64,000 nucleotides of DNA from Azolla caroliniana (Eukaryota; Plantae; Polypodiophyta). The first letter of the stretch is position 1. Each line of letters begins with the position of its first letter. Positions 16,068 to 53,700 of the stretch are shown piece by piece. A program made the translations under genes and the position numbers. A model generated the notes under the pieces. That model searched no databases. It was not told the origin of the DNA and saw only the letters and a list, made by a program, of their open reading frames with translations. Where the stretch lies: NCBI GenBank assembly GCA_043228905.1, contig JBHGNT010000007.1, positions 13,082,001 to 13,146,000 on the forward strand, read 5' to 3'.

Positions 16068-16077
16068 AGGGGGAGTT

Positions 16078-25107: not shown

Positions 25108-25112
25108 CAATT

Positions 25113-25125: not shown

Positions 25126-25259
25126 TCACATTGTGCATCACAACGAACAAACATCGGTGGACGCCCCTAGTCGCCAGTACGACGCCCAATCTCCTTACCT
25201 GCTCTCGGCCCTACTCCCGTCCTGCTAAGTTAGCTGAAGATACTACTGGCTCTGTGATC

Positions 25260-28200: not shown

Positions 28201-30580
28201 GACCAAGAGAAAACAACCTTTGTCACCGAATGGGGAGTGTTCGTCATAGTCGTGATGATGTTCGACTTGAAAACGACACTGGCCACTTTCCAACATATAA
28301 TTGCCAAAATTTTTGAGGACTATATCCTAGCATTCATGCAAGTCTTCCTCGATGATTTTGTTGTATATGTACAACAAATCGAGCACCTCGAATATTTACG
28401 CATGTGCCTCACACGATGCCGACAGGCACGATTCAGCTTAATCCAGTGAAATGCGCCTTCTACGTAACTAGCGGTACCTTGCTCAATCATATCGTCAGTC
28501 GGGAGGGCATAGCCATGGATTTCGACAAGGTGCACGCTATCTTGAATGTTCCAGCCCCAGCATGGCGAAAGCTCTTAGTCGATTTTTCGGACAGTTTCGG
28601 TGGCATAGTTGCGTGCTCTGCTACCTGGCCGATTTGGCAACTCCTCTGCATGCTGCAATGCACACGATTCCATTTTGGTGGACGGATCGGGAAGACGAAC
28701 CTTATCGCTCCCTCAAAGTGATGCTTTCACATGCCCCAGTTGTACAACCACGAAATTGGTTGCAGCCTTTCCACGTGTTCGTGGATGCTTCTGACATCGC
28801 CATCGGAAGCGTACTAATGCAGAAAACGTCTCCGAACTGGTATCGTCCAGTATACTACGCTAGTTGACGACTGTCCATGGCCAGAAAAAACTACTCTACC
28901 ATGGAACACGAAGCGCTCGGAATGATATACAGTATTATGAAATTTCATCATTACCTACTTGGCCGAAAATTTACATTTCACGTGGATCATTCGACACTTC
29001 TTTACCTGGTTAACAAATAGGCCTTTGGCCGGTCGATTGGCATGGTGGATGCTCCTTCTGCAAGAATTCAACTTTGACATCCAAGATCGACCAGGGGTCT
29101 AGCATGCAGTTGTAGATTACCTTAGCCATCTCGAATCCAAAGAACACGCCGAAACGGAATATGATGACTTACTTGACAATAGCTTGTTCACCGTTGACAC
29201 TACAACCCTGCTTGCAGATCATGAAGACGCCTGAATTATGGACATGACACATTTCCTCAACACTGGCCTCCCACCTGAACATCTAACGTTAGATGCCAAG
29301 AAACGATTAGTGATCCGAACCCGTAATTTTTGCCTGTTTACGAGCACTCTGTATCACAAAGGCTCAGACGGTATTTGGAGACGCGTGGTATGACAATTTG
29401 AGAAAGATGCAGTTCTACGCAAAGCCCACCACGGCGTTCTCGGCAGTCGCTACGTGGGTGATGCCACAACTCGGAAGATTTGGTAAAGCGGACTATGGTC
29501 GCCTACAACGAAAAAAGACGCTCACAAATGTTGCAAGCAAGGTGATCTCTATCACCGGATGGGCCAACCGAGCAAACAAGACTGAATGCCCCACCAACCA
29601 ATCCTGCTTTTGGAAACTATCCAAAAACAGGGATTGGATTTCATAGGGCCATTCAAACCACCCGCAATAAGTACAGGCAACAAGTATATAATCGTGGAAA
29701 CCAATTATTGCACAAAATGGGTCGAAGCGAAAGCACTCTGCAACAACACGGCCACGTCAACAGCCAAATTCGTGTACGAATATTTGTGGTTTCATTTGGA
29801 TGCCCAATCGAACTGGTGAACAATCAAGGAGGACATTTCGTCAATCGGCTTATTCACGATTTAACTTCTCATTACGCGCTCGTACACCAGAAAAGCACTC
29901 CATATTATCCTCAAGCCAACGGATTGGCGAAATCCACAAATAAAACCCTACAAACCATTCTCAAGAAAATCGTGAATGAGCATCGAACAGATTGGGACGA
30001 TAAATTGCATAGCACACAGTGGGCTTACCGCACTACGTTCAAGAGCAGCATCGAGTCCACACCCTTTTGAATGGCGTCTGACGTGGAAGCCGTAATGCCG
30101 ATCGAGTTCCAAATTCCAAGTCTTCGGGTGAAAATAACTGAATGATTGCCCGAATCCGAGTCAGAACAACAACGACTGGAACAACTACTCGAACTTGGGG
30201 AAGAGCACATCACTAGTTTCTTTCAATTGGAACACAACCAACAAAGATGGAAAGCTTTCGTAGATCGACATAGCCGTGATCCCGCAAAATCCTTCATAAT
30301 CGGCCAACCTTTCCTAGTGTTTCAAACACAACTCGGGACAATGCCGGGAAAACTTCGATTTCGATGGATGGGACCGTTTTGGATCATCGACACATACAAC
30401 GGCACATTCCAGATCGGCACACTAGCCGAGGAAGCAGTCAAGAATTGGGTCAACGAATTTTTGTTGAAATCGTACCGTGGCCCAACACCACCAAACCCCT
30501 TCGCAGAACAACAGCACGGCCAGGACCAAACCGTGGTAGGTGACATCGAAGATTTCGGGGGCACCATGCCCCAATCATAG
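25260..30580 (+). pseudogene. Gypsy C gag-pol, degenerate
   Basis: YSRYTDGLDAEAHI (gag); IIDGGSG (protease); FLDGFSGYNQI and VFLDDF (RT); FVDASD (RNase H); STPYYPQANG and GKLRFRWMGPF (integrase). Confidence 0.92.
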
Positions 30581-31018
30581 TAATTTGTCACCTACCGGCC
30601 ATGTGTATACTATTATTAAAATAAATAAATAAAAAGACCCATGTGTACACTATTTAAAGACGAGGAACGCCACACGAGAAAAGAAAGTACAAACGGTTCA
30701 AACGGCGCGTGGTCCTTAACTTCTAGTATGGCAGGCAAGATTCTGAATCTAGGGCACAAGGGCACGTCTCACGAATCAAGGCACTTGCATAAAAGCAGCA
30801 CCTATAGGCAAAGTGCTCGCTCTTCCAGAAACAATCAAGCTCTCGCTCCTCCTGCTCAAACTCTCTCTTGCTCACACCCTCTTGGCAATGAAGCTCTTTC
30901 TCGCTCTCCATCTCCATCTAGCGCACTCTCTTGCTCTTCGGAATCCTACATGCCGATCGACGTATCACAAGAGCTCCGCACTTGGCTCACCAGGCACAGC
31001 CTGGGAGGTTATCTCAAT

Positions 31019-34000
31019 TGAAAAGAATTGCGTGTGGAAGCAATACAGGAAACCAAACAACAGAAAATGCAGGTTTAATGGAAAGCTTAGGTTTGCATAG
31101 TACGCACGGGAGAGACACAAAGAGAGAGTGAAACACAAGAACTTAATTCAAAAATAATACTCAATCTGTACATAGGATGTGCTCAGTGAGCACTTTTATA
31201 CAAGCCCTGACAATCGAGCTGACACAAGTACTGACAGTACTTGACTGCTCATAAATGAGCTTCGACTCTTACTCCCAAAACTATTCCTTACGAGGAATAT
31301 CTCTCTAACGGCCTTTTGGTTTACGCACCGATACGGCCTTCCTATGCACCGGTCTACATACCGGTTTACACACCCATTTTACGCACCGGTCCGGCCTAAC
31401 CGATCGGTACCAACCGATCCGGTCCTCAGCTTGCTCAACCGATCCTGCCGATGTTTAGCTTGTCTCTCAACACTCCCCCTCAAGCTCAACTTGAGGTTCC
31501 GCCTACTCCGTCGGATCTACGCTTCGGCTTCTCCCGGCTCCACGCCTTGCTCGCACTTCTCGGCCTGTTCGACTCCGCACGCTTCAACCTTTCCGGTCAG
31601 CTTGTCTGCTCCCACGACCCTTCTCAACTTCCTTGTTGTGGTGTTGGCACCTCTTATGCCGCCTTCTCTTCCGCTTGGCCCTTGGTTGATTCAGCATATC
31701 CGAATCAAACATTTGAACCGACTCGGCTACCTCCGATCGGTTTTCGCTCTCATCCGAGTTGGTTGTCTCCAACTCTTCTTCGGTCTTCTCGCCCTTGACG
31801 GCTTCATCTCCCCCATGCTTGGTTGACTTCGGCTCTTTCTTCCAGCTGCTCCCTTTGTGTCCGCTTTTGGACTCTTCCGCAGGTCCGCCCTCGGCTTCTT
31901 CATCCGATCCAAAATCGAATTCATCATCCGACTCGGCGTCGCGGTCTTCTCTCCCCCTCAAGTTCGGCACATCGAGGTGACGCAACCCAAGCGCACCTGA
32001 GAATTGCCGCAACTTGTCCAGACCAAGAGGCTTGGTGAAGATGTTGGTGGGTTGCCGATCCGTCGGAACATACTGAAGTTCGACTTCACCGGAGAGAACA
32101 CGCTCACGGACGAAATGGCAGTGCACCTCAATGTGCTTAGTCCATGCATGGAAAACAAGGTTCTTGGCAAGTTGGATGTTGCTGACATTGTCGCAGTAGA
32201 TCGTCCTCGGATCGGACACCTCCTCTTGCAGGTCCTTAAGTAGCCGTTTCAACCATATGGCTTCGCATTTCGCGACAACCGCTCCTCGGTACTAAGGTTC
32301 GGTGCTCGACAGTGCAACTGTCGACTGCTTCTTACTACTCCACGTGATCACGGCAATCCCAAGAGAGAATGTGTATCCGGACGTGGATCGGCGATCGGCG
32401 GCGTTGCCAGCCCAATTAGCGTCGGTGTAGCCAACCAGCGGCGAGGCTGTACCAGTCCGATATAGCAGTCCCCGATCCTTAGTGCCGCTTATGTACCGCA
32501 GTACGCGTTGCGCACACTGAAGGTGCTCCTCGATAGGTCGCGCCATGAACTGACTGAGCACTCCAATGGGATAACTGAGATCGGGTCAGGTGATTATCAA
32601 GTAAATAAGGCTTCCGACAATTTGTCGGAACCTCGTCGGGTCGCACACCTTTCCGGAATTGGGGTGAAGCTTGACAGTTCTATCAAGAGGAGTCAAGACG
32701 GGCTTACAGTCTGCCATCCCGAATTTGAAGAGCATATTCAGCGCATAATGACGTTAGCTAATCAGTATGCCTTCGGGGGTGCAGATCACTTCGATCCCAA
32801 GGAAGTAATGAAGGTCCCCTAGATCCTGCATGTCGAATGATGCCGCAAGCTGGAGCTTCACGCGGTTTGATTTCACCTAGGTCGGCGTCGGTGATGACCA
32901 AGTCATCAACATATAGTAAAATACTAACCGGCCTGAGTCGACCTTTCCGGACGTTGCAAAGCCCATCTGACGCAGTTCTTACGTGATCTTCGCATTCCAG
33001 GCACGCAAGGCTTGCTTCAGTCCGTAAAGGGACTTCTTCAATTGGCACACTTGTTCCATGTACACCTGTTCCTCAAGCTCACCTTGCAAGAACTCATTCT
33101 TTACATCCATCTGATGTAAGTGCCACCCCTTTGCCGCAACTACCGCGACCAAAACACGGACGGTCGTCATCTTCGCGACGGGCGCAAACGTCTCATCGTA
33201 GTCGATGTTGTGTTTCTGCGCGTAGCCTTTTGCCACTAACCGGGCCTTGTATCAGTTGATCGAGCCGTCGGTGTTGTACTTGACCTTGTACACCCACCTA
33301 TTGATAGGAATACGCCTCCCTAAGCTATGCTCGGCCACAACCGAGACGTCGGATCAATCACAAAAAACAGGAATGTTGAGAGATGTATCTAAACACGAAA
33401 CAGTAAAGAAGAGAGTGCACTGGATGTTAACATGGAAAACCCTGAGAGGGAAAAACCATGGGAGTCCACAGACTCCAAACTATCACACTGTAAAGTAATA
33501 CAACAGGGAGCACAGAGGCAATGACCTCTTGCTCACAATCTTCACTTAGCGGCGGTTACAAAAGAGACATACTCTGTATCGCTCTCTCTGTCTCTCTCTC
33601 TGTATAGTCGTTACACAAATGACTCTATCATCATAACTATTAAGTTTGCCCTAGGTCATATTTATACTAATATGACTTTTAGGCTATTTACAAATATAGC
33701 CCCAATGGGCTCTCTGGAACATATTTACATATATGTCCCTTAATCCAGTGAGAGGTTCTCACCGGGCCTGCAACATCCGGTTCTCACCAGGTCTTCCTTG
33801 CCAGGTACTCGTCATCCAGTTCTCACCGGGTCTTCCGTTGTCGGGTGCTCCACATCTGGATTCGGCCTCGGCCGAGTTTGCTCATCAACACTGTTCTTCT
33901 CACTTACCATCCAGAGGAACCTATTTCCTAACAAACTCCCCCTTCACTGTGGCATGGGATGTCTTACTAGCTCGATCCACACCCAACATGCATCCAGCTT

Positions 34001-37000
34001 GTTGGGTATTAATACTTTGGGCAGCATATCTGACCCGTTCTCGGCCGTGTGGATCTTCGTCAGCGCGAACTCTCGATCTTCTACTCGCTACCGGATCCAG
34101 TGATACCTACGCTGGATGTGCTTCATCCTGGAATGGTGCGCTGCGTTCTTAGCAAGGTGGATGGCACTTTGACTATCGCAATAGAGCCAGTATTCACCTT
34201 GCTAGATACCGAGCTCTCCGATGAAGTCCTTCATCCATAATATTTCCTTGCCTGCTTCCACAGCCGCCATGTACTCCACCTCCGTGGTTGACAATGCAAC
34301 CGTCTTCTACAGCCTCGACTGTCACGAAACAGCTCCCCCTGCATATGTTATTACATACCCGGATGTAGACCGGCTGGTATCCACATCAGCCGACATGTCC
34401 GAATCTGTAAAACCGTCAAGTTGAGGTTTACCGGAGCCGAATCAGAGACACACATTCGAAGTGCCCTTTAGGTACCGAAGTATCCATTTGACCGTGTTCC
34501 AGTGCTCCTTGTCGGGATTGCTCATAAACCGGCTCACCACTCCGACTGCGTATCCAATATCAGGCTAAGTACACACCATTGCGTACATCAAGCTCCCGAC
34601 GTCAAAGGCATATGGAACCTTCATCATATCAGCCTTCTCTGCTTTCGTCTTTGGGCTTTGCTTAACGGATAGTCTACAGTTTGTTGGGAGTGTCGATCCG
34701 ACCAGTTTTGCTTCTAACATGTTGAACCGCTGAAGCACCTTTGTCACGTATTTCTCCTGTGACAACCACTATTGCTTCTTTGACCGGTCCTGGACGATGT
34801 GCATCCCCAGCATTTGTCTTGCCAGACCCAAGTCTTTAATTGCAAAAGTTCGGTTAAGAGCCTTCTTCAGCATCCGTATTGTTCTTCTCACTTCCCATCC
34901 GGAGGGACCTGATTCCTAACACCTACATCCGATCGGCTTCACACCCTTCGGTGCGTCAACCAGGTCCCAGGTCTCATTTTCCGCCAATGCGTGCATCTCT
35001 TCCTCCATCGCGGCACGCCAATTCGCGTCCTTAGCCACTTCTACATAGCTCTCCGGCTCACGCACTTCTGCTACATAGGTCATGTACGCATAATGATGCG
35101 CCATGTACTCGTTGTATCTGAACCACACAATTGGGTTCTTCTGGCGGGTAGATCGGCATAATCGGTCTTTAGCCGATGTCGAGGTCTTCTCGGCTGACGC
35201 GGACTTCGCTCCATCACGGCTTCCCTCGGAGTCGGACTCACATTGATCCGACTCATTCCTATCCGTGCCGTAATCCGACACCTTCTTCTTCCCTTTTTCT
35301 TTACGCGTGAGCCGTCTCCTCGGCTTCCTGCGCAAGGAATGTACGTCCGAGTCTCCACTACTCGCCGACTCTTCATCGGACTGGTCGAAACGACTTAGTC
35401 GTCCATTCGGTCCACTTAACCGAAACGAAATCAGACTCTCTTCGGGGGTCCCGATTTCAGGCTCAACCGGAGGCACCTCGGCCTCGCTATCCTCATTGTC
35501 AGAACTCGGATTGGTGGTGAGGTCCGGAGTCGGAGGCAAGTACCAGGACGCGGACTCATCAAACACAACGTCGCGGCTCACGCGCGCTTGTTTGGTGCGC
35601 AAGTTATAACACTTATAACCCTTTTGCTCGTCCGAATGGCCGACCAAGATACACTTCTCGGCTTTCGTGTCCAACTTCCTCCTTTTCTCCTTCGGCACAT
35701 GCATATACGCAATACTACCGAAAACTCATAAGTGTCACAAGTTCGGCTTCATTCCGAAATATAGTTCATGCGCCGACACTTTGTCTCTGATCCAGTTCTA
35801 GATGTATACTGCGGTCCTTACCGCCTCGGCCCAATAGAACTTGGGCAAACTCTTCTCCTCCAGCATTGCCCGTGCCGCTTCCACCACCGACCGATTTTTC
35901 CTCTCGGCCACGCCGTTTTGCTCTGGTGTGTATCTACAACTGAATTCGCGCCGAATTCCCATCTGTTGTAAATAACCGTTGAATTGATCGGAAAAGCATT
36001 CTTTTCCGCCATCCAACCACAGGCACTTGATCTTTCTTCCTGTTTCCGTTTCCATGAACCCTTTGAGGTCCCGAAAACAGTCGAAGACTTCGCTCTTCCT
36101 CTCAATGAGGTAGATCCACGTGTGCCGCGTGTAGTCGTCGATGAAGGAGACGAAATATCAGCTCCCGCCAAGTCTAATGTTTTGTGCCGGCCCCACACAT
36201 CGGAGTGTATCAAGTCGAGCTTGTTCCAGCTCCGGTTACGCTCGTTGGGGAAGGGAAGTTGGTGTTTCTTCCCAAGTTGGCAGGCTTCACAAATTTGTGC
36301 CTTCCGGCCACTAAATTTGGGCAATCCGAACACCACCTGTTTCGATTGCAGGTCCTGAAGCCGCTGGTAGTTGACGTTGCCTATCCGCTTGTGCCATAAG
36401 TCGATGTTCGACTCGACTTTTTGTCCCTTCGCGAACATTGCGGTGCCACCATCAGTAGAGTCGAGGATGAACATCCTCCCATCTCTGCACCCTTGCGCAA
36501 TAATACGGCCTTCTTCCTCAATGAAGCACCCGAGATGCGTAAACCGAACCTGCATCCCCTGGTCGACGATCTGCCCGACCGACACCAGGTTCTCTGTGAT
36601 TGTCGAGACGTGTAACACGTTCATGAGTTTCCCATTCTGTCTGACATGGCTCAAGGGAACTTCACCGACATTCACAATCGGATGCGGAGTGTCGTCTCCG
36701 GTTACGTCGGTTTCGCAAGATATGAGAACCACTCCTCGTGGCATGTCATGTGGTTTGATGCGCCGGAGTCTACATACCACACCTCGTTCAATTTCAGGGC
36801 AGACCCTTTTCCAGCTTCTCCGGATCCTTCGGCGTAGTGCAATCGCTGCCAGTTTCCTTTGTTCGTATGTCCGGAACCAGATCCGGAACCAATCCTCTCC
36901 AACTCGGCGCGCTTTTTCCAGCACTCGCTCTCCCTATGCCCTTTCTTGCCACAATACCAGCATTCCGCGGCAGATTTCCCTTGCCGGTTCTCGTCGCCCC

Positions 37001-38330
37001 AACTCCCCCTGTTTCTAGAGGGTCCAGAATTGCTGTCAGCATCACTTCGGTGCCTTCTTCCTTGATCCCATCAACCACCTCCATTGCGTACCGACTTGCC
37101 TCGTCCGCCACGACCACGGGGCCTATCTCCCTCCCTGTACATCATCTTGTTGTCGCCATGCGTGCTTGTCGACGCACCCGCGTGGTTCTCCTCTATAAGG
37201 AGCATCAATTGTAAGTCAAAAAAGGACGGCATATTCTCCCGGGTACACACAGCAGTTCGAAACGCCCCGAACTTCGACGCCAAACCCTCGAGACAAACCT
37301 GGACCATCTCGCTTTCCTCGATGTTCACATCGATGGAAGCTAAGGAGTCGCATATGTCCTTAATCCTCGAGGTATAGTCAGCCACCGACAAATCACGTTG
37401 TCATAGGTTGCTCAACTCCTGTCGGAGCTAAAGCTTCCTAGCTGTGGTGCTCGTGGTGAAGATCTTCTTCACATTTTCCCATGCACCCTTCAGCGTTTTT
37501 GCATCCCGAATGTAGCTTAATAGTTGTTCACCCACACAAGATGCGAAGCAGTACAGCACTCTGCTCGCCGATTGTTCCCACGCCGGGAAGTCCTTTGTGT
37601 GTCGAATCGGGTGTTGTGTCATTTGCACCATCGACATAGCTCCAGTAACCGTGACCGAGCTAGTATTGGTGCATCTTGTAAGACCAAGACACGTAGTTGT
37701 TTCTGTCGAGCTTCTCCGTCGGAAGCGAGCTAGCCATTCCTCTATCCATCGGTTTTCTTGTTCTTTTGCATTGGTTTTTCCTTCAAGCAAAGTCCGCTGC
37801 AGAGGTTCTCAACCCTCGCGTATCACAAGAGCTCCGCACTTGGCTCACTAGGCACAACCTGGGAGGTTATCTCAATTGAAAAGAATTGTGTGCGGAAGCA
37901 ATACAAGAAATCAAACAACAGAAAACGCAGGTTTAATGGAAAGCTTAGGTTTGCATAGTACGCACGGGAGAGACACAAAGAGAGAGTGAAACACAAGAAC
38001 TTAATTCAAAAATAATACTCAATCTGTACATAGGATGTACTCAGTGAGCACTTTTATACAAGCCCTGACAATTGAGCTAACACAAGTACTGACAGTACTT
38101 GACTGCTCATAAATGAGCTTCGACTCTTACTCCCAAAACTATTCCTTACGAGGAATATCTCTGTAACGGCCTTTCAATTTACGCCCCGATACGACATTCC
38201 TACGCATCGGTCTGCGTACCGGTTTACACACCTGTTTTACGCACCGGTCCGGCCTAACTGATCGGTACCAACTAATCCGGTCCTCGGCTTGCTCAGCCGA
38301 TCCGGCCGATGTTGAGCTTGTCTGTCAACA
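31019..38330 (-). mobile_element. Ty1/copia element H, inserted in the gypsy C extra ORF
   Basis: 454-bp LTRs at 31019-31472 and 37877-38330; TSD TCAAT (31014-31018, 38331-38335); gag, PR, INT, RT and RNase H fragments. Confidence 0.95.
33302..34921 (-). mobile_element. Deleted Tto1-like copia I (relative of D), inserted in the RT of H
   Basis: 3' LTR 33302-33933; PPT; RT/RNase H end (MSQEKYVTKVL, YAMVCT); ~41 bp of 5' LTR (34881-34921); TSD CCTAT/CCTAC. Confidence 0.88.
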
Positions 38331-41300
38331 TCAATGTTCTCGATGTTGCTCCTCACCCCGAAGCACATGCCATAGCAAAGAAACTACACCCAAACACCAT
38401 TACAAACAACATGATTCGCTCAACGCTTCGTTTACAGCAAGGGGGCGAGCACGACATCGACACACCGCCCCAACACATCTTGGAGCAGCATTTCGGCGAG
38501 TATTCGGTCTCAGGTAAAGCCCACTGCACCGATGGAGGACCCAATGATTTTTTTGGAAACTTGGCCCACATCCTCCTGGAGTTAACCTGTGTCCATGCCA
38601 ACCCCTATAGTATGTCTAAGAAAAAGGTGGGACTGATCATTACAGCCTATCGAGACGGAGCCATCGATTCGGGGATCATCACCAGAGAAGGAGTTTGAGC
38701 CGCCATCGCCTCCTTCCAATCAGGAAAAACGTTCTTACCGATACTTGCACAATACATCGTTGTGCTCTATCCTCCCCAAACGCCGACGCCACACCAAACA
38801 TTGGCACTTCCCACTTCCCCCACTCAGGCCAAACGACAACGCACCTTGCAGTTGTCACACAATGAATGGTAGGACAACACACCAAACCCAACCTCCACTT
38901 CAGCACAGGCGGAGAAAACTACAAAGGACACGGATGACATTACGATCCACGGCCGCGATAGGCCCCTCAGCCCCGCACCTCAACTAACTTTGCCTCATTC
39001 TACCCCTAGCCCACGATCAGCCAAAAAAACAGAAAGCCAGAAACTTGCTCCATTCCGATCAACAGGACCCCAATTGAAAAGAAGTCGTGAGGAACGGACC
39101 GCTCCAAAGAGCCTGGTTGCGAAACGCTGCCAAATCAACCGTCGCAGCGACGAACAAACAACAGAAAGCACAGCTAACGATAGGCAAGTGATCGTCATCC
39201 CGGTAGTTCCGGACACCACATTGGCTCTCAACAAACCAATCGAACAGGGCCAACAATCACGATTTTCGGAAAATGAAGTGCTAACCTTCAAGGATCTTCC
39301 TAGGGAAGCATACAAGCTCGGTGCCATTTTGTAGCGTACGAACTCATCAACTTCCTAGCTCGTCTCCAAGTTGTTGTTGTAGCCCGCATGGCCCAAAAAC
39401 ACGTCGAGCAAAAGGGCATTAGATAACGCGCCGGCTTCGGACGATGAGCCAAAATTACAAAAGGTGTGGTGTACAAGAGCCACGAAGAAACGACGCACCC
39501 ACATTGAGCTTCCAGAGCTTAACACGGCACTTGTGGAAACATATCGGGAACTGGAGAGGACAATGTGCGCGGCAAAAGACATGGCCGCCAGTTGTAACTT
39601 AGCGCAGCAGCAAGCAAAGACCACCACCGACTTGTGGAATGCCTTCGAGACCCAAAAGACCGAACTCAAGCAATAGCTCCGAGCAATTGGTCAGACCTCA
39701 ACGCTCACTCTGCCTCTTCTCACTTCCAACCCACCAGAAGCATTGACCCAAACGGAGCTAACAAATTGCGTCAAACTGGTTGCGATTGCCACTCAAACCG
39801 ACTCAACCAACCCTCGCGACCAAACAATGGTATCAACTCAAACTGAAGAAGATTTCAACATGACCATCTGCAACTATGAAGAAGACATTGCCCTGCACAA
39901 GGCAGTTGCGGACAAGAATAAAGAACGCAACGAGCAAGCTAGATAGGAGGCTGAGAGAATAAAGGAGCAAGCTGTAAAAAGGGAAGCCGAACTACAGAAA
40001 CTACTCCACGATCAAACGATCCAGCTCGAAGAGGTCGAATACAGCACTATAGTATCCCTTAAGTCCATATAGAACATCGCTCCTGCACAAATTGCCTCTC
40101 TCAACAAGGAGATCAGGGAATTGTAGGAACACTCCAGTCAATTCATGGAGAAATTGGACCGAACCGAGCAGGAGCGATGCCAATTGGCAAATTCCCTCCA
40201 TAAACATAAAATAAACGCAACTTTGGAACTCGAACGACAATGTGAGGAGTGTACGAAGGAAGCAGATGAACACACAGACCGCCTCCTCAAACGTTTTGAG
40301 CACTTCACGCAAGAGTTAGAAGCACGGGTTGTTGCCCTCAACACGTCCTGTGAATTAATCACGGCAAAAACGGAATGTTGTAGGAGGACAAAGCTAAAAA
40401 AGAGACGATCGCGCTCCAAGCCAAATACGACAGTTGTGAGGAACGACTCCGCACCCTCATGGTCAAACAACGACAAAAGCTCAATCGGAAGGTCAAGGAG
40501 ATGCTCACTAATGGCTGGAGGGCATGGTCGGCTCAAGCGGCCGAACTCCATGTATTACGGGCCGACGCCGAGAATCGGAAGAAAGAGGGTCGCGGCTTCT
40601 ACAAAATGGATGAAAACAACATCCAAATGGTCTGGGAAGACCTCACCGAGGACTTCCAAGCCCTGGCGAAAATACACACCACGGAAATTGGAAACCTTCT
40701 GAAAGAATTCAATGACGACCAATTGTTGTTACTGATTGAAACGGAACAAGCTTTTGAAGAAACCCTTTCTGCCAAGGCTGAGGATAACGAAATGAAGACA
40801 GCACCAGACCAAGAAGAGAAAGCCCCCACTCCACCAGCAACGAGGCTAGATAACGAACACAAGCCCAATTTTTTGGCCAAACAAAACATACAACCCGAGT
40901 CGCAACCAACCATCTCCATAGCATCAAAAGAGGACACAACCGTGCAAACTACCCCTAAGGGCATCCTTGACATTTTGACAAAAGACTGAGAGTACCATAA
41001 CCATTTTGACAGAAGACTAAGAGTACCAAACAATTCGACGTGCTAAGGCACTGTCCCACAGGCGTGCCAAGTGTTGTCTATGGGCCAATTTTGTAAATTA
41101 AGTATAAAATGAACCAAAGGTAAGCGAAGTAGGTAAAGGCAACAAAAATCAAGAAGTTAACAAAGAACACAGCCAGCCGTAATACATGCAGCCGAAAAAT
41201 GTAAAAGAATACGTGTGCATGTGTGTGTGGAAGCGTATCCGTAAGACATTGACTATGCAGTTCGGGAATACGACAATTCGGTAGATGCAGAGAACACAGA

Positions 41301-42242
41301 GAGAATGAGTGAGAGAGACAAAGAAAGAATAACACTCTGTACATACTTCGTGCTCAGTGAGCACCTTTTATACAAGCCCTAACTATTGGGCTGACACAAG
41401 TACTTACAATACATGACTGCTCATAAATGAGCATCCTACACTTACTCCCAAAATTATTCCTTATGAGGAATAACATTCTAACGGCCTCTCGGTTTACGCA
41501 CCGCTACGGCCATGTTGTGCATACAGTTTTACGCACCCAGTCTATGCACTAGGTTATTGCACCCGTTTATGCACCCAATGTTGACCTTGTCTCTCAACGC
41601 TCCCCCTCAAGCTGAACTTGAGGTTCCATCTACTCTTCCGGATCTTCGCTCCGGCCTCTCCTGGTTGCACGCCTCACTAGCGCTCCTCCACCCGTTCGAT
41701 TCCGCGCACTTCGACCCTTCCGGTTGGCTTGTCTGCTCATGTGGCCCTTCTCAGCTCCATTGATGTCGCGGTGTTGGCGCCTCTTTCACTACCCTTTCTT
41801 CCACTTGGCCCTCAGTCAATTCGTAATGTCTGAATCGAACATTTCGATTGAGTCGGTCACTTCCGATTCAATTCCACTTGTCAAGACCAAGGGGCTTGGT
41901 GAAGATGCCAGCAATCTGCCGACCCGTCGGAACATATGCAAGTTCATCTTCACCGGAAAGGACCTGCTCGCGGACAAAATGATAATGCAACTCAATGTGC
42001 TTGGTCCGGGCATGGAATATGGGGTTTTTCGCAAGGTGGATACTGTTGAGGTTGTCGCAATAGCACATCGTAGGATCAAACACCTCCATATGCAGATCTC
42101 GTAACAGCCGTTTTAGCCAAATGACTTCGCATGTAGCGACAATCGCCCCTCAATATTCGGCCTCCATGAGCAATAGTGCTACTATCGGCTACTTCTTACT
42201 GCACCATGCGATCGCCGCACTTCCCAACAAGAATGTGTATCC

Positions 42243-42888
42243 TGTTGTGAACTCGACTTTCCTTATGTCCGACGCTCGGCCACAACCGAGATTCTTTTCA
42301 TACACAGAAAAAAAACACGTAATGAAAAACGCGACACCAAGGGGAGAAATGGTACACAGGAGGTTTACGTGGAAAACCCCAAAATAAGGGAAAAACCACG
42401 GCAGCCCACAGGCTGCAAACTGTCACTATGTAGGAATATACAACAGTGAGTTTACTGAGGCAACGACCTCGTGCTCTCAGATCTTCGCCACAGGCGGCGG
42501 TTACAATAGAGGCAACGACCTCGTCTCTCTCTCCCTCTCTCTGTACAGATACGCGCTCTCGCTTCTTCTTGCACCAACAAGGAAGAAGAACGATAACAAA
42601 AACAACACACTAAAAGTTTGCCCTAAGTCATATTTGTACTAATATGACTTTTCGGCTATTTACAAATGTAGCCTCGATGGGCTCTCAGAAACATATTTAC
42701 GAATATGTCTCTTCCTCCGGTTCATACCGGGCCTACACCATCCGGCTCTCCGCAGTCGGGTACTCCCCATCCGGTTCATACCAGGCCTACACCATCCGGC
42801 TCTCCGCAGTCGGGTACTCCCCATCCCGTTCATACCGTTTCGGCACTGTTCTTCTCCCTTCCCATCCAGAGGGATCTGTCTCCCAACA
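42243..42888 (-). mobile_element. Solo LTR of the Tto1-like (D/I) family, inside the RNase H of J
   Basis: TG...CA; TSD TATCC (42238-42242, 42889-42893); shares motifs with the D LTR; contains ~54-bp CCGG-rich tandem units. Confidence 0.9.
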
Positions 42889-42985
42889 TATCCGGATGTG
42901 GATCTATGATCGTGGGCATTTCCAGCCCAATCGGCATCCGTGTAGCCAACTAATTGTTCTGCTACGCCTGTACGATACAACAATG

Positions 42986-43035
42986 TGTAAAAATGAAGGT
43001 GCGGAAGCGTTAGACAACTAGTTTAGCCGGATAGC

Positions 43036-43078
<43 letters not shown>

Positions 43079-46000
43079 ACACACAAAAGGTATGCAAGAA
43101 AGACAGAGAAAGAGCAGAACAACTTAAATCTATTATCAACAACTTTGTAAAATCCTCTGTACATACAACGTGCTCAACAGCAGTATTTATACAAGTCCTA
43201 AGAGGACTGCTAGAAGTACAGTGTACTTCAATGCTCACACGAGTGTTTGACACTAGCTACGAGACATTAACTACCTAGTAGTCTAGGTTGCTACTAGGCT
43301 TCTGGTTATTGCTTGATCCGGCTAACCGGCTCCCCAGCTCACCGGTTTGCTTGCTCACCGGCTCATCCTTCTAGATGCCGATCCAGATCCAGTTGAGCTT
43401 GCCTCTCAACATTCCCCCTCAAGCTCAACTTGAAGTCGGATCGTACTGTCAGTCTCCATGGCAGCCGATCCTTCCACCCGGCTCCTTCTAGCATCACTCC
43501 ACCTTGCTCACGTTCCTCGTCCAGTCCGATCCCGTTTGCCATGACCCTTCTGATTTTGCGCACCTTGACTTCCTCGGTCAGCTTGTCTACTGAACATGCC
43601 CAATTCAGCTCCCTCGTTGTTGTAACTTCGGCACTTGCCGATTCGCCGATTCCTTCGTGTTGGCATCGACTTTCGCTGCCATCTCGTCCTCTTGGCCATG
43701 AATTGATCTGGTTCTTCCAAATCTATCTGTTCAACCGAATCGGCTGTCTCCGATTCATTCCAGCTCTTGTCCGAATCGGTTGCTCCCGATTCGTCTTACG
43801 GTTCCAGGCCCTTCACCACTTCGAACCATGTCTGGGTCTTGGCCTTCTTCTTTCGGTCGGCTCTGTCCTTCGTGACTCTGTCGCCACTACCACTTGTTCC
43901 GACTTGTTCGGATGTGTCAACTTCCTTTGTCAACTCGGCTCCTTTCTTCTTCTTGTCTCTCCCTTTGTCGGTTCCTCCCTCATCGGCGCAATCGGCAGTT
44001 TCTTTGGCTTTTTCCCTTTCCGGTGTCTTTGACCGTTCTCCCCCTCAAGTGTGGCACATCGAGATGCTGAACACCAAGCATTTCAGTGAAGTGTTACAAC
44101 TTGTCCGATCCGAGCGGATTGGTGAAGATGTCGGCAACTTGTCGATTCGTATGAACATACCGAAGTTCGACTTCACCGCTCAGGACACGCTCACTCACGA
44201 AGTGGTAGTGCACTTCTATGTGCTTTGTGCGAGCATGGAATACGGGGTTCTTGGCAAGCTGCATGCTGCTTATGTTGTCGCAGTAGAGAAGGATCAGGGT
44301 CGGCACCTCGTCAAAGCCAAATGGCTTCACAGGTGGCAACGGTAGTGCCTCGATATTCAGCCTCAGTGCTCGAAAGGGTCATTGTTGGCTACTTTTTGCT
44401 GCTCCACGCAACAGCCGCGCTACCAAGGGAAAACATATAACCGAAGGTGGATCAGCGATATGATGCATCGCCATCCCAGTCGGCATCGGTGTAGCCGACT
44501 AGCTCTTCAGTTATACCATGCCGGTATAACAGTCCCCGGTCCTTAGTGTTGCTCACATATCACAAAATTAGATGCGCGCACAGAAGGTGCTCCACGGTCG
44601 GCTTCTGCATATATTGGCTGATCACGCCGACCGGATAACTGATGTCGGGTCGGGTAATTGTCAAATATATAAGGCTTCCGACGATTTGTCGGAACCGCTT
44701 CTCATCGCAGGCCGGTCTGGAGTCGGGACGGAGCTTCTGGTTTCAGTCCTATATGCATAGTGATGCGCCATGTACTCGTTGTATCTGAACCGCACAACAT
44801 GGTTCTTTTGGCAGTTAGATCGGCATAATTGCTCATTAGCCAATGTTGAGACCATTTTGACCAACGCAGGCTTCGTTCTTGAAGGCCCGTCATCGCTCTT
44901 CTCGGAGTCAGATTTACGTCGATCCGACTCATGCCTATTCGTGCCGTAGTCCATCATCTTCTTCTTTCCCTTTTCTTTGCACGTAAGCTGTCTCTTCTAC
45001 TCGTCGAGTCTCCACTACTCGCCGACTCTTCATCTGACTGGTCAACCTGACTCAGTCGCTCATTCGGTCCACTTAGCCGAAATGAGATCGGACTCTCTTC
45101 AAGAGTTCTAACTTCGCATTCATCATGACACATCTGAGCCTCGCTGACCTCATCTTCAGAACTCGAATTGGAGTTGAGGTCCAGAGTCGGAGGCAAATAC
45201 CAAGACACAAACTCATCGAACACGAAATCGCGACTTACGCGACCTTGTTTTGTTCGGGGGTTATAACACTTATAACCCTTTTGTTCGTCCAAATAACCGA
45301 CCAAGATACACTTCTCGGCTTTCAGGTCCAGCTTCCTCTACTTCTCCTTTAGCACATGCACATACGCGATGCTACCGAAAACCCTCAAGTGTCTTAGATT
45401 CAGCGTCCTTCCGAAATACAGCTCATGTGCCGACACTTTTTCACCAATCCGATTCTGGATGTAGACCGCGGTTCGGACCACTTCGACACTTGATTTTCCT
45501 CTCTGTTTCCCTTCCGACAAGATTTTTGAGGTTCCGGAAACAGTCGAAGACTTCACTCTTCTTTTCGATGAGGTAGATCCATGTGTGTCGGATGTAGTCG
45601 TCGATGAAGGAGACGAAATATTCACTCCTACCAAGACTCACGTTATGTGTCGATCCCCATACATCTGAATGTATCAATTCGAGCTTATTTCGGCTTCGAT
45701 TACGCTCGTTGGGGAAAAGAAGTCGGTGTTGCTTCCTTAGTTGGTAGGCTTCACAAATTTGGGCCTTTCGACCACTGAATTTCGGCAATCCAAACACAAC
45801 TTGTTTCGATTGCCGTTCCTGAAGCCTTTGGTAGTTCACATAGCCTATCCGCTTATGCCACAAGTCGATATCTGACTCGACTTTTTTCCCTTTTGTGAAC
45901 ATGGTGGTGCCTACGTCATTGGTGTCGAAGAAGAACATCCTGTCATCTCTACGCCCTTGCGCAATAACTTGGCCTTCTTCCTCGATGAAGCACCCAAGAT

Positions 46001-47742
46001 GTGTGAACTAGACTTGCATCCCCTGGTCGATGATCTGTCTGACCAACACCAAATTCTATGTAATTGTCGGGACGTGTAACACGTTCATTAGCTTCCCTTT
46101 TTGCCCGACGTGGCTAAGGGGAACTTCACCGACATGTACGATCAGATGCGGACTGTAGTCTCCTGTTGTGACTACACCTGGTTGTTCCGGTTTTTCCAGA
46201 TATGAAAACCACTCTTTATGGTTCGTCATATGGTTTGACACTCTAGAGTCAACGTACCGATTTCGAGGTGGTCTTCTTCATCAAGTTCTCTTCGTGTCTT
46301 GTCACGAAGGTTGCCCCCTTTTCGAATTTTTCGGATCCTTCGGCATAGTGCGTCTGCTGTCGATTTCCTTGTTCGGTCCGTCCGGATCCTGATCCGGTTT
46401 TCTCCGAATCGGTGCACTTCTTCCAGCACTCGCTCTCCTTGTGGCCTTTCTTGCCACAATACGAGTATTCCGTGGCGTGTTTCCCTTGCCGGTTCTCGTC
46501 GCCTCCTCGACTCCCCCTGCTTTCGGAGGGTTAGGAATTGCTGTCGGCATCACCATGATGCCTTCTTCCTTTCTCTTGTCGGCCGCCTCCATTTTGTGCC
46601 AACTCGCCTTGTCCACCATGACCATGAGGCCTATCGCCCTCCGAGTACAACATCTTGTTGTCGGCGTGCATACTCGTCAACGCACCCACATGATTCTCCT
46701 CTACAACGGGCATCGACTGCAAGTCGAAAAACGACGGCATATTCTCCCTTATACAAATAGCAGTTCGGAATGCTCCGAACTTCGACGCCAATCCTCCGAG
46801 GCAGATCTGCACCATTTCGCCCTCCTCAACGTTCACATCGATGGAGGCGAGGGAGTCACATATATCCTTTATCTTGGAGGTGTAGTCAGCCACCGTCATG
46901 TCGCGTTGATGCACATTGCTCAACTCCTGTTGGATTTGGAGCTTCCTGGCTATGGTGCTTGCAGTGAAAATCTTTTTTAGATTTCCCCAAGCATCCTTCG
47001 GCGTTCTTGCATCCCGAATGTAGCTCAAGAGCTGTTTGCTCACACAGGATGTGAAGCAGTAGAGAACTTTGTTTGCCGACTGTTCCCAAGCTGGGAAGTC
47101 TCTGTGTGTCGATTCGAGTGTTGCATCATTCGCTCCATTGACATAGCTCCAGTATCCATGTCTGAGCAAGTACTGGTGCATCTTGCACGACCAAGATGCA
47201 CAGTTACTTCTGTCGAGCTTCTCAGTTGGAAGCAAACTAGCCATACCTCTATCCTTTTTTTTCTTTTCTGTTCTTCACCAAGATTAGTTTTTTTTTTTGT
47301 TTCGAGCTGAAGTCGGTTGCAGAGGTTCTCAACCCTCGCTCTCTGATACTATGGGAAATGTTACGTGCAGAAGCTATACAAAACACAGAATACCGACAGA
47401 GAAAAAACAGGTTTAATGGAGAGCTTAAGATACAATGTACGCGGCAGAGACAAAGAGGGAAAAAACACACAGAAAAACTAAATTCAAACTAATGTCTAAA
47501 ACTCTGTACATAGGATGTGCTTAGAGAGCACTTTTATACAAGTCCATACGAACCGACAAAAATACTAACACATACTTAAATGCTCATAACTTAGCTCCTA
47601 CACTAACTCCCAAATATATTTCCTCGTAGAATATCTGTTCAACGGCCTCCTAGTTTCCGCATTGATCCGGCCTCTTGTTGCACACCGGTTTGCACACCAA
47701 TTTACGCACCGATCTGGCCTATGTTGAGCTTGTATCTCAACA
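42986..47742 (-). mobile_element. Ty1/copia element K, nested in J; internally deleted and chimeric
   Basis: LTRs 42986-43411 and 47352-47742 (dissimilar); PBS at 47340-47351; gag ORF 46531-47244; integrase and RNase H fragments; no TSD. Confidence 0.82.
43039..43074. repeat. (AG)n microsatellite within an LTR
   Basis: Pure AG run of about 18 units. Confidence 0.9.
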
Positions 47743-50700
47743 AGAGTCCGACTTGGACGTTGTAAACCCCATTCTACGCAACCGTTGTGTAATCTTCGCA
47801 TTCCAAGCTCATGGGGCTTGCTTAAGTCCGTATAGTGTCTTCTTCAATTGGCAAACGGCCGAAGTGTTCTGTTCGGATAGAAATCTGGGGGGTTGTACCA
47901 TGTACACCTGTTCCTCAAGATCACCTTGCAAGAACGCATTTTTTACATCCATCTGATGTAGATGCCACTCCTTCGCCGCTGCTACGGCTAGCAAGATATG
48001 TACGGTAGTCATCTTCACGACAAGCGCGAAGGTCTTGTCATAATCGACGTCGTGTTTCTACACGTAGCCTTTTCATTACTAGTCGGGCCTTATATTGATT
48101 GACGGAGCCGTCAGTGTTGTATTTCAACATCCATCTACATCCAATCGGCTTTACACCCTTCGGTGCATCAATCAGGTCCCAAGTCTCATTGTTCGTTAAA
48201 GCGTGCATCTCTTTCTCGATCGCGGCATGCCAATTTGTGTCTTTTGCCACTTCTGCGTAGCTCTCCGACTCATGCACTTCCTCCATGCGCGATATGTACG
48301 CATAATGATGCACCATGTACTCCTTATACTCGTACCTCTGTATGGGGTTCTTCAGGAGGGTAGATCGGCGTAATTCGTGATTACCCGATTTCACGGCCTT
48401 TTCGGCCAATTTCGACCTGTTCCGTGGAGGTTCCTTTTTTATTGGCCCGAAATCTGACTCGCTCCGATCTGACTCGGCACAGCCGAACTTGTATTCTAGC
48501 ATTTTCTTTTTCCCTTTTTCTTTACGCGTAAACCGTCTCCTCAATTCTTTACGCGAGGACAACATGGCCGAATCTCCACTATTCGCCGACTCTTCATTTG
48601 GTTGGCCATATCAGCTCAACCCCTCATTCGGCCCGCTTAGCCGAATTGAGATCGGACTCTCTCTCAGAGCTCCGATGTCCTAATCACGCAAAGGCATCTC
48701 AGCCCCACTAACCTCTTCTTCAGAATTCAGAATGGATTCATCAGGGATTGGAGACGAAAGCAAGTACCACGAAGCGGACTCGTCAAACACGACATCTCAG
48801 CTTACGCAAAGTTCCTTCATTCGGGGGTTATAGAATTTATACCCCTTTTGTTCGTCTAAATAGCCGACTAAGATGCATTTTTCGGCTTTGGCGTCCAGCT
48901 TCCTCCATTACTCCTTCAGCACATGCACATATGCGATGCTACCGAAAATCCTCAAGTGTGCCAAGTTCGGCTTCTTTCCGACGTACAGCTCATGTGGTGA
49001 CACTACTCCATTAGAAGAAGTCTGATTCTGCAAGTAAACAACCGTCCTCACGGCTTCAACCCAGTAAAACTTTGGCATATGCTTCTCTTCAAGCATTTCC
49101 CTGGCCGCTTCTTCAATTGTCCGATTCTTCTGATTGACCATGTTGTTCTGTTGTGGCATGTATCTACACGAGAATTAACGTCGAATTCCTTCCTTCTGTA
49201 GATAACTTGTGAACTCGTCAGAGAAGTACTCCTTCCCACCATCGGACCACAGGCACTTGATCTTACGCCCTATTTCCCTTTCCGCAAGGCTTTTCACCAT
49301 CAGGAAACATGCGAAGACTTCGCTCTTCTTCGCGATCAAGCATGCCCAAGTGTGCCGAGTGAAGTCATCGATAAAGGTTATGAAGTAACGGCTTCCTCTG
49401 ATGCTCATGTTCTGTGCCAGCTCCCACACGTTCGAATGACTACGATTATGCTCATTGGAAAATGGAAGTCGGTGTTGCTTCCCTAGTTGGCAGGCTTCGT
49501 AGACCTCGCCATTCTGGCCACGAAATTTCGGCAAACCGAAAACAATGTTCTTTGTCTGCATTCCACGAAGTCGTGGGCCAAACCGCTTGTGCCATAGGTT
49601 GATATCTTATTCAACCTTCTGTCCTTTCGCAAACAACGTGATTCCGGCTTGGTTGATGTCGAGGATGAACATCCTCCCTTCACGGCGCCCTTGCGCGATT
49701 ACTTTGCCTGCTTCTTCGATGTAGCACCCAAGGTGTGTGAATTGAACTTGCATTACCTGGTTGATGATCTGTCCAACTGACACCAGGTTCTTGGTTATTG
49801 TTGGGACATGCAACACTTTCATAAGTTTCCCTTTTTGCCTGACGTGGCTGAGGGGAACTTCTGCAACATGTTCAATGGTATGCGGAGTGTCGTCTTCGGT
49901 TTCGACCACTCCTTGCTTTTCCGGTTTCTCCAAGTACGAGAACCATTCCTCATGGCTCGTCATATGATTTGACACTCCGGAATCAACATACCACATCTCG
50001 CTCGATTTCAAGGTGTTCATGGCCATTGAATTGGCTTGTGCTTCATTACGAAGGCTGGGCCCGCTCCATTTCCAGCTCGTTCAAAGCCCTCAGTGTAGTG
50101 CGACCTTTGACGCCTCTTTGTGTCTCTTCCACTCGATCTGGCTTTGTTTGAATCGGCTCTCTTCTTCCAGCACTCCCTCTCCTTATGGCCTTTCTTACCA
50201 CAGTACCAGCATTCCGTAACGGCCTTCTCTTGCTGGCTTCCGACGACGCCATGACTCCTACTTCTGGAGCGTTCGGAACTGCTTCCGGCATTTCTATCAT
50301 GTCGCATGTTCTACTCTTTTCAACCACCTGCATTGCGCATCGATTCTCCTCATCCGCCACGACCACGGGGCCTATCTTCCTCCGTGTACAACATCTTGTT
50401 GTTGGTGTGGTACTCGTCAACGCACTCGCGTGATTTTCCTCCACGAGCAACATCGACTGAAGCTCGAAGAAGGAAGGCGTATTCTCCCTCATGCAGATCG
50501 CCGTTCGGAACACTTCGAACTTTGACGCTGGCCCACCAAGACAAACCTGCACTATTTCATCTTCCTCGACATTCACGTTGACGGAGCCGAGATAGTCGCA
50601 GATTTCCTTGATTCGGGCCGTGTAATCAGCCATAAACATATCCTTCTGCCAGACATTGTTGAGCTCCTGCCTGAGCTATAGCTTCCTGGCCATTTTAGTA

Positions 50701-53700
50701 GCGGCAAAAATCTTCTTGAGATTCTCCCACGCACCCCGAATGTAGCTCAAGAGCTGGTCTCTCACAGAGGACGCGAAGCTATAACGAACTTTGCTTGCCG
50801 CTTGTTCTCAAGCCGAAAAATCCCTGTGTCAATTCGGGTGTTATATCATTAGCTCCTTCGACATAACTCTAGTAGCCATGACCAAGCAGGTACTGGTGCA
50901 TCTTGTACGACCAAGATGCATAGTTGCTCCTGTCGAGGTTCTCAGTCGGTAGCGAGCTTCCCATTCCTCTGTCCATATTGTTGTCTTATCCTTTTCGAAA
51001 GCAAGAAGGAAGACTCAACTCTATCTTTATCGCAAGCTTTTTTGTCGGTTGTAGAGGACTTCAACCCTCGCACTCTAATACCATGTAAAAGAATACGTGT
51101 GCGTGTGTGTGCGAAAGCGTATGCGTAAGACATTGAGTATGCAGTTCGGGAATACGACAATTCGGTAGACGCAGAGAACATAGAGAGAATGAGTGAGAGA
51201 GAGAGAGCAGACAACGATTCTATACGAGAAAGAATAACACTCTATACATACCTCGTGCTCAGTGAGCACCTTTTATACAAGCCATGACTATTGGGCTGAC
51301 ACAAGTACTGACAGTACTGGACCGCTCATAAATGAGCATCCTACACTTACTCCCAAAATTATTCCTTACGAGGAATAACATTCTAACGGCCTCTCGGTTT
51401 ATGCACCGCTACGGCCATGTTGTGTGTACGGTTTTACACACCCAGTCTATGCATTGGGTTACGCACCCGTTTACGCACCCAACGTTGAGCTAGTCTCTCA
51501 ACAAAAATGAGGGAAGAATAAAGCACGTCGAGCAAGAAGAAGAAAAGACCTATAAAAACATGGAGCAAAACGTAGACAAGGGGAGGAGGAGAAGATTGTT
51601 AGATGAGATAGCAAATTCTGATACATAACTATATTTACTTCTATCATAATTCCAGTCGTGAGCCGTTTTTCTTTTCAATCATAATACATATACAATTTTG
51701 GGTCAATACTCTACTTTGTGTTAAGATCGTTACGTAATTCTACATTCTTGAATTAAGGTCTTGTCTACAACAGAGCAACCCTACATGTATTGTGTTGTGT
51801 CCATCACATTCCATAGCCCCCCTTGGTCCGATTTCGCTAAGAAATCGAAGGTGTTGCTTCCGAAGAGGGAGCGAACAATCCGGAACCGGGAAGACCGGAA
51901 AAGGGTCAGTCTTCCTGATGAAACACGAGGCGAACTTGATGAAGAAGACCACTTCCAGATCCGAGGAAGTGTGGTACATTGACTCTTGAGCATCTAACCA
52001 CATGACCAGCCATGAAGAGTGGTTCTCGTTCTTAGAGAAACTGGAACAACCAAGAGTTGTCGAAACCGGAGACGACACTCCTCACCCAATCATGCATGTC
52101 AGAGAGGTTCACTTGAGCCATGTTGGACAGAAAGGGAAGCTTATGAACGTGCTACATGTTCCAACAATCACAAAGAACCGGGTGTCAGTTGGGCAAATCG
52201 TCGACCACGGAATGCAAATGTGGTTTACGCACCTCGGGTGCTTCATTGACGAAGAAGGCCGGATAATCACACAAGGGTGCAGAGATGGGAGGATGTTTAT
52301 CCTCAACACCAATGACGTCGGCACCACCTTGTTTGCCAAAGGATAGAAGATTGAATTAGACATCGATCTTTGGCACAAGTGGATCGGCCACGTTAACTAT
52401 GGAGGCTTCAAGATCTGTAATCGAAACAAGTTGTGTCCGAATTGCCAAAGTTTAGTGGCTAGAAGGCTCAAATTTGTGAAGCCTGCCAACTTGGGAAGCA
52501 ACACCGGCTTCCATTCCCCATCGAACGAAACCAGAGCCGTAACAAGCTCATCTTAATCCATTCAGATGTATGGGGACCGGCACAGAACGTTAGTCTTGGC
52601 GGGAGTCGATATTTCGTCTCCTTCATCGACGACTACAGCCAGCACCCTTGGATGTATCTCATCGAGAGGAAAAGTGAAGTTTTTGAATGCTTCCGGAACC
52701 TTCAAAACTTAGTTGAACACGAAACCGGAAGAAAGATCAAGTGCCTGCGGTCGGATGACACTATGTGTTGAATATGTTGCACAAGTTCGTCTTGATTGAA
52801 TGACAACCAATCTCCGCACCCCTGGACCGGAACTTGAAGCTACGTCCCGACTCCAGACCGGCCTGCAATGAGAAACGGTTCCAACAAATTGTCGGAAGCC
52901 TTCTTTACTTGACAATCACTCGACCCGACATCAGTTACCCGGTCAGAATGATTAGCCAATTCATGCAAAAGCCGACCATGGAGCACCTTTAGTGCGCTCA
53001 TGGGATACTCCGGTACGTCTTAAGACAAGTTGCAGCACTTTTCGGAGATGCTCGGATTACAGCCTCTCGCCATGCCGCACTTGAGGGGGAGAGTTGGAAA
53101 GGAAACAGGTATTGGCATTGGACAAGGGGCCGGAGAGGAAAGAACCAAGACAGGGGGAGATAAGAAGAAAAAGGAAGCTGAGTTGACTGGAAGAGTCGGC
53201 ATATCCGAACAAGTCGAAACAAGCGGCGGCGGTAGAGTCAAAGAGGACAAAGCCAACCAGAAGGAGAAGGCCAAGACCCGGACATGGTCCGATGTTGTGC
53301 AAGGCCGAAAAACGGGAGACAAATTGGAGACAGCCAATCCAGACAAGAGTTGGAACGAATCGGATGCACCCGATTCGAAAGAGGTGGTTGATTCGGATGA
53401 GCCGGATCAACTCGAAGCCAGACGGACGAGGAGGCAGCAGAAGTCGACGCCGATACGGAGGAGACGATGGGTTGACAAGCGTTGTACTCACGGAAACAAA
53501 GGAGTTGAGGTGGTCCTATGGAGCAAACAAGACGACTAAGGAGGTCGTGGTACGCAGAACTAGAAGGGTCACGGGAAGGGGAACCGGACCAGACCGGACG
53601 AGGAGCACGAGCAAGGCAGGAGGATGCCAGAAAAAGTCGAACGAAAGAACCGTCCAGCACAAATACTGACACCATGATCCAACCTCAAGTTGAACTTGAG

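Follow-up and report, generated by a model that had tools for sequence, protein, structure and literature searches.

In the accessible part of PMC5371799, priming of the plus strand from a polypurine tract (PPT) is described as the general rule in retroviruses and LTR retrotransposons. The same text describes for Ty1 and Ty3 of S. cerevisiae a primer-binding site (PBS) of two parts, in which the acceptor end and the T-arm of the tRNA pair with separate segments, a small loop lying between them in Ty1. The non-chromovirus OTA group Athila combines a 5-bp target duplication, the lack of aRH, an AT-rich LTR-PBS spacer of 3-6 bp and a long extra ORF after pol, according to the available portions of PMC6317226, 10.64898/2026.03.20.713144 and PMC1142308. 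Tat elements possess an additional archaeal-type RNase H, and Phygy and Selgy are characterized by a 4-bp duplication, a tRNA-Trp or tRNA-Ala PBS and no extra ORF (PMC6317226, as far as its available text goes).

The window studied here, i.e. the whole stretch of 64,000 nt of DNA, is a nest of plant LTR retrotransposons. One of them, element C, carries a tRNA-like motif directly before its 3' LTR. The motif is real and conserved, and throughout the family a mirror-image tRNA site takes the place of the PPT.

Element C and the junction before its 3' LTR

Element C is a single unit with LTRs at 24562-25107 and 41072-51877 and the target duplication ATCCG at both ends. The LTR pair with its target duplication, the order Gag-PR-RT-RH-IN seen in the intact relatives L045, L054 and L015, and the tRNA-complementary PBS after the 5' LTR are those of a Ty3/gypsy element. 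The two LTRs differ by 45 mismatches in 493 ungapped columns, which indicates that this copy is old. The following features were recognized:

24557..24561, no strand: left target-site duplication ATCCG, second copy at 51878-51882
24562..25107, plus strand: 5' LTR of element C (TG...CA), with a TATA-like box in the sense direction
25108..25112, plus strand: AT-rich LTR-PBS spacer of 5 nt, Athila-like by the accessible part of 10.64898/2026.03.20.713144
25113..25125, plus strand: first-strand PBS, complementary to the tRNA-Arg 3' end over 10-13 nt
25131..25148, plus strand: hairpin with a 5-bp stem, then a CGAAC box complementary to the T-loop; build kept in relatives
25400..30580 (limits approximate), plus strand: gag-pol of non-chromovirus Ty3/gypsy type, with stops and frameshifts
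30961..38330, minus strand: copia element nested inside the extra ORF of element C
38331..40989, plus strand: 3' extra ORF, broken here and open in relatives
41034..41038, plus strand: remnant of a T-loop copy, tRNA positions 54-58; relatives retain the full 49-58
41039..41052, plus strand: 14-nt insert between tRNA positions 58 and 59, a 4-bp hairpin with arms 41040-41043 and 41048-41051
41053..41069, plus strand: copy of tRNA-Arg positions 59-76 ending in CCA, one base absent at the T-stem/acceptor junction
41070..41071, plus strand: NG extension, 2 nt from CCA to the LTR
41072..41199, plus strand: 3' LTR, part one
41200..51503, minus strand: copia element nested inside the 3' LTR of element C
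51504..51877, plus strand: 3' LTR, part two, then ATCCG

The sequence GTCCCACAGGCGTGCCA occupies 41053-41069 and is followed by AG and by the TG of the 3' LTR at 41072. The first-pass annotation had reported a CCA 2 nt from the LTR, the identity of 10 of 11 nt with the reverse complement of the element's own PBS (start 25113), and the absence of a purine run before the 3' LTR. All three observations were reproduced: CCA ends at 41069, and purine runs reach at most 3 nt in the last 20 nt and 6 nt in 100 nt. The conserved unit is longer than that description, which had the 3' half only; it comprises about 41 nt including the T-loop copy and the hairpin. The motif at 41034-41069 is a copy of the last 28 nt of a tRNA-Arg, minus one base and plus a hairpin insert of 13-14 nt (13 nt in 12/12 relatives, 14 nt in the window copy). 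The window copy is without the first five bases, tRNA positions 49-53, which read GTGGG in relatives; where these bases lie in the relatives, a local 31-nt tandem duplication (window 40972-41033) adjoins the motif upstream. The depth of this duplication in run X1 is almost nil, and part of it is matched by one contig of organism B.

The reference tRNA was a phage gene, L093 (148-241, minus strand, 94 nt, CCA encoded), which was found by pattern search and called tRNA-Arg(TCT) by ARAGORN; its 3' 28 nt match the motif. Compared with it, the layout of the motif is 49-58, insert, 59-65, base 66 absent, 67-76, the host base at position 66 possibly being different from that of this phage proxy. When CCA-ending 17-mers on both strands of the window were scanned against the last 18 nt of tRNA-Arg(TCT) less one base, two sites had at least 14 matches, namely the motif (17/17) and the PBS (14). 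Neither a tRNA gene nor an RNA family was found at the motif by ARAGORN and Rfam. An exact 20-mer and an exact 18-mer from the hairpin region of the window copy gave no match in metagenome and viral contigs, and the hairpin varies among families. The nine viral loci returned by a looser motif pattern were attributed to chance, none having RT/integrase similarity or a tRNA at the match.

Four controls inside the window (one chromovirus, three copia) all show purine runs of 9-10 nt before the 3' LTR. At the junctions of the element C type the purine run is 3 nt in 15/15 full cases (window copy and 14 relatives), and in every one of them CCA lies 2 nt from the LTR. The first-pass annotation had allowed for other copies with an ordinary PPT; none was present in the 14 relatives with a full junction.

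Other parts of the nest were also noted. The chromovirus gypsy B (4082-9735, minus strand) has an ordinary PPT and a 5' LTR without a following TGG-type PBS, as expected for the self-priming Tcn1 type. A young copia (11317-16734, plus strand), with LTRs 99% alike and an open polyprotein of 1373 codons, lies inside the gag of gypsy A. At about 60000-63000 (minus strand) there is what we take, by eye, to be an intron-containing host gene of aldo-keto reductase type.

Relatives of element C and the build of the two internal ends

An integrase search of metagenome contigs yielded 312 relatives, of which the best 80 were analysed. Among these 80, the complete motif precedes an LTR in 13 loci, 2 loci break off within the motif, 1 (L077) is without it and 64 stop before the junction. 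The motif is thus present in 15/16 of the junction-reaching loci, a count that overstates independence, since several motif-bearing loci are near-identical and fall into about three subgroups. In L077 the LTR without motif lies downstream of a break in the extra ORF. Integrase searches of viral contigs gave no relative. A full-length relative with 60% integrase identity, L010 (G001:C10), was present in a genome contig and has a diverged motif (hairpin, tRNA-like tail, CCA, AG, TG). This element has an open frame of 2444 codons and is of plant type. Its 79-kb contig comes from a bacterial MAG, the GC being higher and the genes bacterial-like in the other parts; the contig is probably chimeric or misbinned. 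The remainder of it contains no tRNA gene and no second motif.

Contigs of four runs were aligned to 40850-41198 at 80% likeness. The summed depth over the motif was 31,688, 107,412, 21,655 and 971, a measure not equal to copy number, in which loose ends represent many differing sequences flanking one common core. In run X1 the depth is 45-158 over the internal region and 165-977 over the LTR. The motif core was also found in two further organisms nearly devoid of element C words, with 9 and 24 contigs aligned. The last 19 nt of the motif are 95% alike in seven divergent copies, compared with 58% upstream, 56% in the LTR and a random baseline of 53%.

An RT tree was built from 51 unclassified rows, namely a selection out of 120 proteins, together with loci and three window pieces. 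Elements A and C fall into one clade (100/100) with those motif-bearing metagenome loci that include RT. L010 and two fern (Adiantum) proteins fall just outside this clade. Judged by these relatives, the host is likely a seed-free plant. L030 and L031 are about 85% identical to gypsy A. The extra ORF after pol is open in relatives, with 917-1194 codons and no membrane helix, at the following positions:

L030, 3319-6327
L045, 7515-11096
L046, 3301-6123
L054, 6958-9885
L015, 6247-8997

Its N-terminal domain gave weak Atlas leads to Transposase_32 (0.85) and ATHILA (0.82) clusters. Pfam returned no family of note; isolated matches to VP30 and DUF724 fell in low-complexity or coiled stretches and were disregarded. 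In L010 a domain related to the extra ORF (E 1e-5) is fused in frame with pol.

Fifteen first-strand sites (elements A and C and 13 loci) were surveyed for the build of the PBS. In 14/15 a hairpin begins 16-19 nt from the PBS start, and in 13/15 a CG(A/G)AC box complementary to the T-loop lies at 30-34; L015 has a variant box, and L010 neither box nor hairpin. Box and hairpin occur together in 2% of random windows, and the hairpin sequence differs by subgroup. The build was located at 25131-25148 and 17039-17083 (minus strand) of the window and in L015, L026, L030, L031, L040, L045, L047, L054, L059, L062, L064 and L075. Read on the minus strand, the 3' motif repeats this order and spacing, with the hairpin at 19. 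As judged from the sequences, one putative tRNA-docking design, consisting of acceptor match, hairpin and T-loop box, is present at both internal ends in mirror image, which points to the same machinery as that of first-strand priming. The combination of a short PBS, hairpin and T-loop box in this clade resembles the extended PBS of Ty1, and none was seen described for plant elements.

The tail of the motif does not follow the PBS. It had been predicted in the first-pass annotation that the tail of gypsy A relatives would match their own PBS, and this failed, as L030 and L031 combine the gypsy A PBS with a tail of element C type, alike at 6/10 positions. The agreement is 5/10 in L010, 10/10 in L040, L045 and L047, and 8/10 in five other loci, where the changes are uncompensated. 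The other PBS types presumably correspond to the isoacceptors UCG, CCU and ACG. The tail stays tRNA-like and keeps its tRNA identity when the PBS switches tRNA, which suggests an invariant partner outside the element.

The minus strand of the motif is predicted to pair with 26-27 of the 28 nt of the L093 tRNA end in 13/13 full metagenome sites; a single tRNA base would bulge, and the hairpin of the DNA would be looped out. Energies predicted for the 13 metagenome loci lie between -21 and -35 kcal/mol, while shuffles average -6 to -8; RNA parameters were applied here to an RNA-DNA hybrid with the phage proxy tRNA, and the pairing follows by construction from sequence identity. In the window copy only 17 nt are predicted to pair with this tRNA, and in L010 the predicted pairing is weak (-14.6; shuffle minimum -15.0), its C-to-T differences breaking pairs.

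The changes in the motif are mainly G-to-A and T-to-C. With L010 left aside, transitions were found at 6/16 G/T positions, where wobble pairing of the minus strand with the tRNA is kept, and at 1/11 C/A positions, a difference that is not significant (Fisher p = 0.11). Transversions were also found at 55 and 59, and single bases are inserted three times in the T-loop part. At both the PBS and the 3' motif the variants mostly appear to keep G-U/G-T pairing with the tRNA. The hairpin stem of the motif survives double changes in 11 cells versus 5.0 +/- 1.5 (0/500 shuffles), a result inflated by related rows and obtained from an alignment that includes the tRNA row and three rows of another register. 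When either strand of the motif was folded by itself, the result did not surpass that of shuffles.

Proposed plus-strand priming by tRNA and the alternatives

The motif is a conserved mirror of the tRNA primer site in the place of the PPT, and host tRNA-Arg probably anneals there to the minus-strand cDNA and primes the plus strand. This second priming by tRNA-Arg is proposed because of the conservation, the predicted pairing and the mirror-image build of the PBS. A first tRNA-Arg would prime the minus strand from the ordinary PBS; after strand transfer the motif would be copied by RT and the RNA cleared by RNase H. A second tRNA-Arg, of the UCU/CCU type, could then use up to 27 of its last 28 bases to pair with the exposed DNA, one tRNA base being bulged and the DNA hairpin looped out. 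Extension of the CCA end by RT would give a left end of NG plus the LTR, from which integrase would trim 2 nt. Given the position of the motif, the left cDNA end would begin with the base that follows CCA, and 2 nt would remain for integrase, which usually trims 2 nt. Finally RNase H would remove the tRNA, and the site of this cut may be determined by the bulge, which would lie 10 bp from the junction. In Ty3 a local distortion shifts RNase H cleavage 10-12 bp downstream, according to the available part of PMC5371799. One might speculate that the bulge, which would exist only in a tRNA-DNA hybrid, is linked to a cleavage distance like that of Ty3. Against priming by tRNA it counts that a tRNA within an RNA-DNA hybrid should be accessible to RNase H before extension.

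On the wider scale, there is a good probability that element C belongs to an Athila-like Ty3/gypsy lineage of seed-free plants which has dropped the PPT and in which both strands would be primed by tRNA-Arg at two mirror sites, one on the RNA and one on the minus-strand DNA, some families packaging two different tRNAs. Fold-back of the first-strand primer in cis was rejected, as the PBS and the 3' site fit different tRNAs in L030, L031 and L010.

It is possible, but unlikely, that the genomic RNA itself is the primer, the tRNA-like stretch refolding or resisting RNase H and being cut after CCA as a structural stand-in for the PPT without any host tRNA. A primer at this position is the textbook arrangement, and the sense RNA of L030, L046 and L054 can form a T-arm-like stem with a free CCA tail. 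Moreover, the catalytic motifs of RNase H read as intact in the related polyproteins. However, genomic RNA matches its cDNA regardless of its sequence, which leaves the tRNA identity unexplained, and the mirror-image build of the PBS has no explanation either. The G-to-A changes at 49 and 53 break the sense stem with no C-to-T in the partner strand, and the folding is not above that of shuffles (z -0.92 to 1.29).

A role of the motif as tRNA mimic or small-RNA target in packaging, RNA processing or RT loading, with the plus strand started from an unrecognised primer, is distinctly improbable. It has a parallel in Helenus LTR elements, which carry tRNA-derived pieces with non-priming roles (PMC10886601, in the portion available), but the motif is tied to the left cDNA end by its exact spacing of 2 nt from the LTR and by the lack of any PPT; furthermore, its place is outside the LTR, and no tRNA gene is detected in it by Rfam and ARAGORN.

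Less likely again is an exchange of the strands, by which the packaged genome would be the antisense transcript, the 3' site its first-strand PBS and the sense PBS the primer site of the second strand. On the minus strand the 3' site does match the tRNA over the greater length and with a spacer of 2 nt, G-U wobble suits RNA, and the arrangement resembles the two-segment PBS of Ty1 divided by a small loop (PMC5371799, accessible part). The 5' PBS and its AT-rich spacer follow the Athila pattern, however, and the sense PBS of L010 is long and canonical-looking. Sense TATA-like boxes occur at 140-193 nt in 4/4 LTRs, although antisense matches were also found in 3/4. The fixed G-to-A changes in the last 10 nt would be corrected by recopying from the tRNA, an argument tempered by Ty1 and Ty3, which do not recopy their PBS from tRNA (PMC5371799, same part).

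Pairing of the RNA tail with the element's own PBS, either closing the RNA into a circle or, after cleavage at CCA, self-priming the minus strand, had been raised in the first-pass annotation and is very improbable: the energies allow it in the window copy and in 5/7 relatives tested (-20 to -26 kcal/mol) and suits the loci with 10/10 agreement, but it leaves the plus strand without a primer and is contradicted for gypsy-A-type families by the lack of co-variation (-9.4 kcal/mol in L030/L031), and it cannot be the general function, since the tail does not follow the PBS there or in L010. A one-off rearrangement is ruled out by the motif in related loci and in the read data of four organisms.

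Significance and comparison with known systems

A start of both strands by tRNA-Arg is likely and would be an undescribed mode of copying for such elements. The first-pass annotation knew of no description, and a full-text literature search, with subscription journals mostly outside its coverage, likewise found no tRNA copy or inverted PBS replacing the PPT; no such site is described in the available portions of PMC7466625, PMC11963269, PMC2864245 and PMC12220202. If the proposed priming is true, this successful lineage of several families would show that RT can start on a tRNA-DNA hybrid, spare this hybrid from RNase H long enough and remove the tRNA precisely, which would give a handle on the choice of RT between extending and cutting a primer. 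Both strands might then be open to blocking by 3' tRNA fragments. Annotation filters based on the PPT can miss these elements, and the short junction can serve as a diagnostic in the search for them. Some relatives are intact and have open reading frames.

The four intact relatives have no chromodomain after the integrase; gypsy B has one and falls far off in the RT tree. The additional RNase H of the Tat group (TatI-III, Ogre, Retand) was not seen in L010, L015, L045 and L054, for which Pfam gives one RNase H of RT type only. The 5-bp duplication, the Arg-type PBS and the long extra ORF separate the element C group from Phygy and Selgy. With Athila it has in common the 5-bp duplication, the lack of aRH, the AT-rich spacer and the long extra ORF after pol. 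Athila has a PPT and an 18-nt PBS for tRNA-Asp/Asn, whereas the element C group has no PPT, a short tRNA-Arg PBS with hairpin and T-loop box, and an inverted second site. The group is therefore Athila-like by the features compared, but lacks the PBS type and the PPT of Athila.

Helenus TRIMs share with element C the tRNA-derived sequence in an LTR element (Kojima 2024, PMC10886601); there, as far as the available text goes, the tRNA piece is a Pol III promoter within the LTR, the elements have a PBS as well as a PPT, and no part in priming was found by the author. Unlike Helenus/TRIMp3, element C codes for protein and its motif lies outside the LTR. The self-priming of Tf1 and Tcn1 is a like case of altered priming rules in Ty3/gypsy elements (10.1101/2022.12.06.519325, part available). 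It differs in that the minus strand is concerned and the PPT is retained.

The bipartite PBS of Ty1 and Ty3 is alike in the pairing of acceptor end and T-arm with separate segments, but these are first-strand sites on RNA, and both elements are PPT-primed for the plus strand. The 3' segment of Ty3 is tRNA-complementary in the sense RNA, whereas the motif here is tRNA-identical. In the primer translocation of hepadnaviruses, RNA annealed to a complementary site on minus-strand DNA starts the plus strand; the primer there is a capped piece of viral RNA and not a host tRNA, in viruses having neither LTRs nor integrase.
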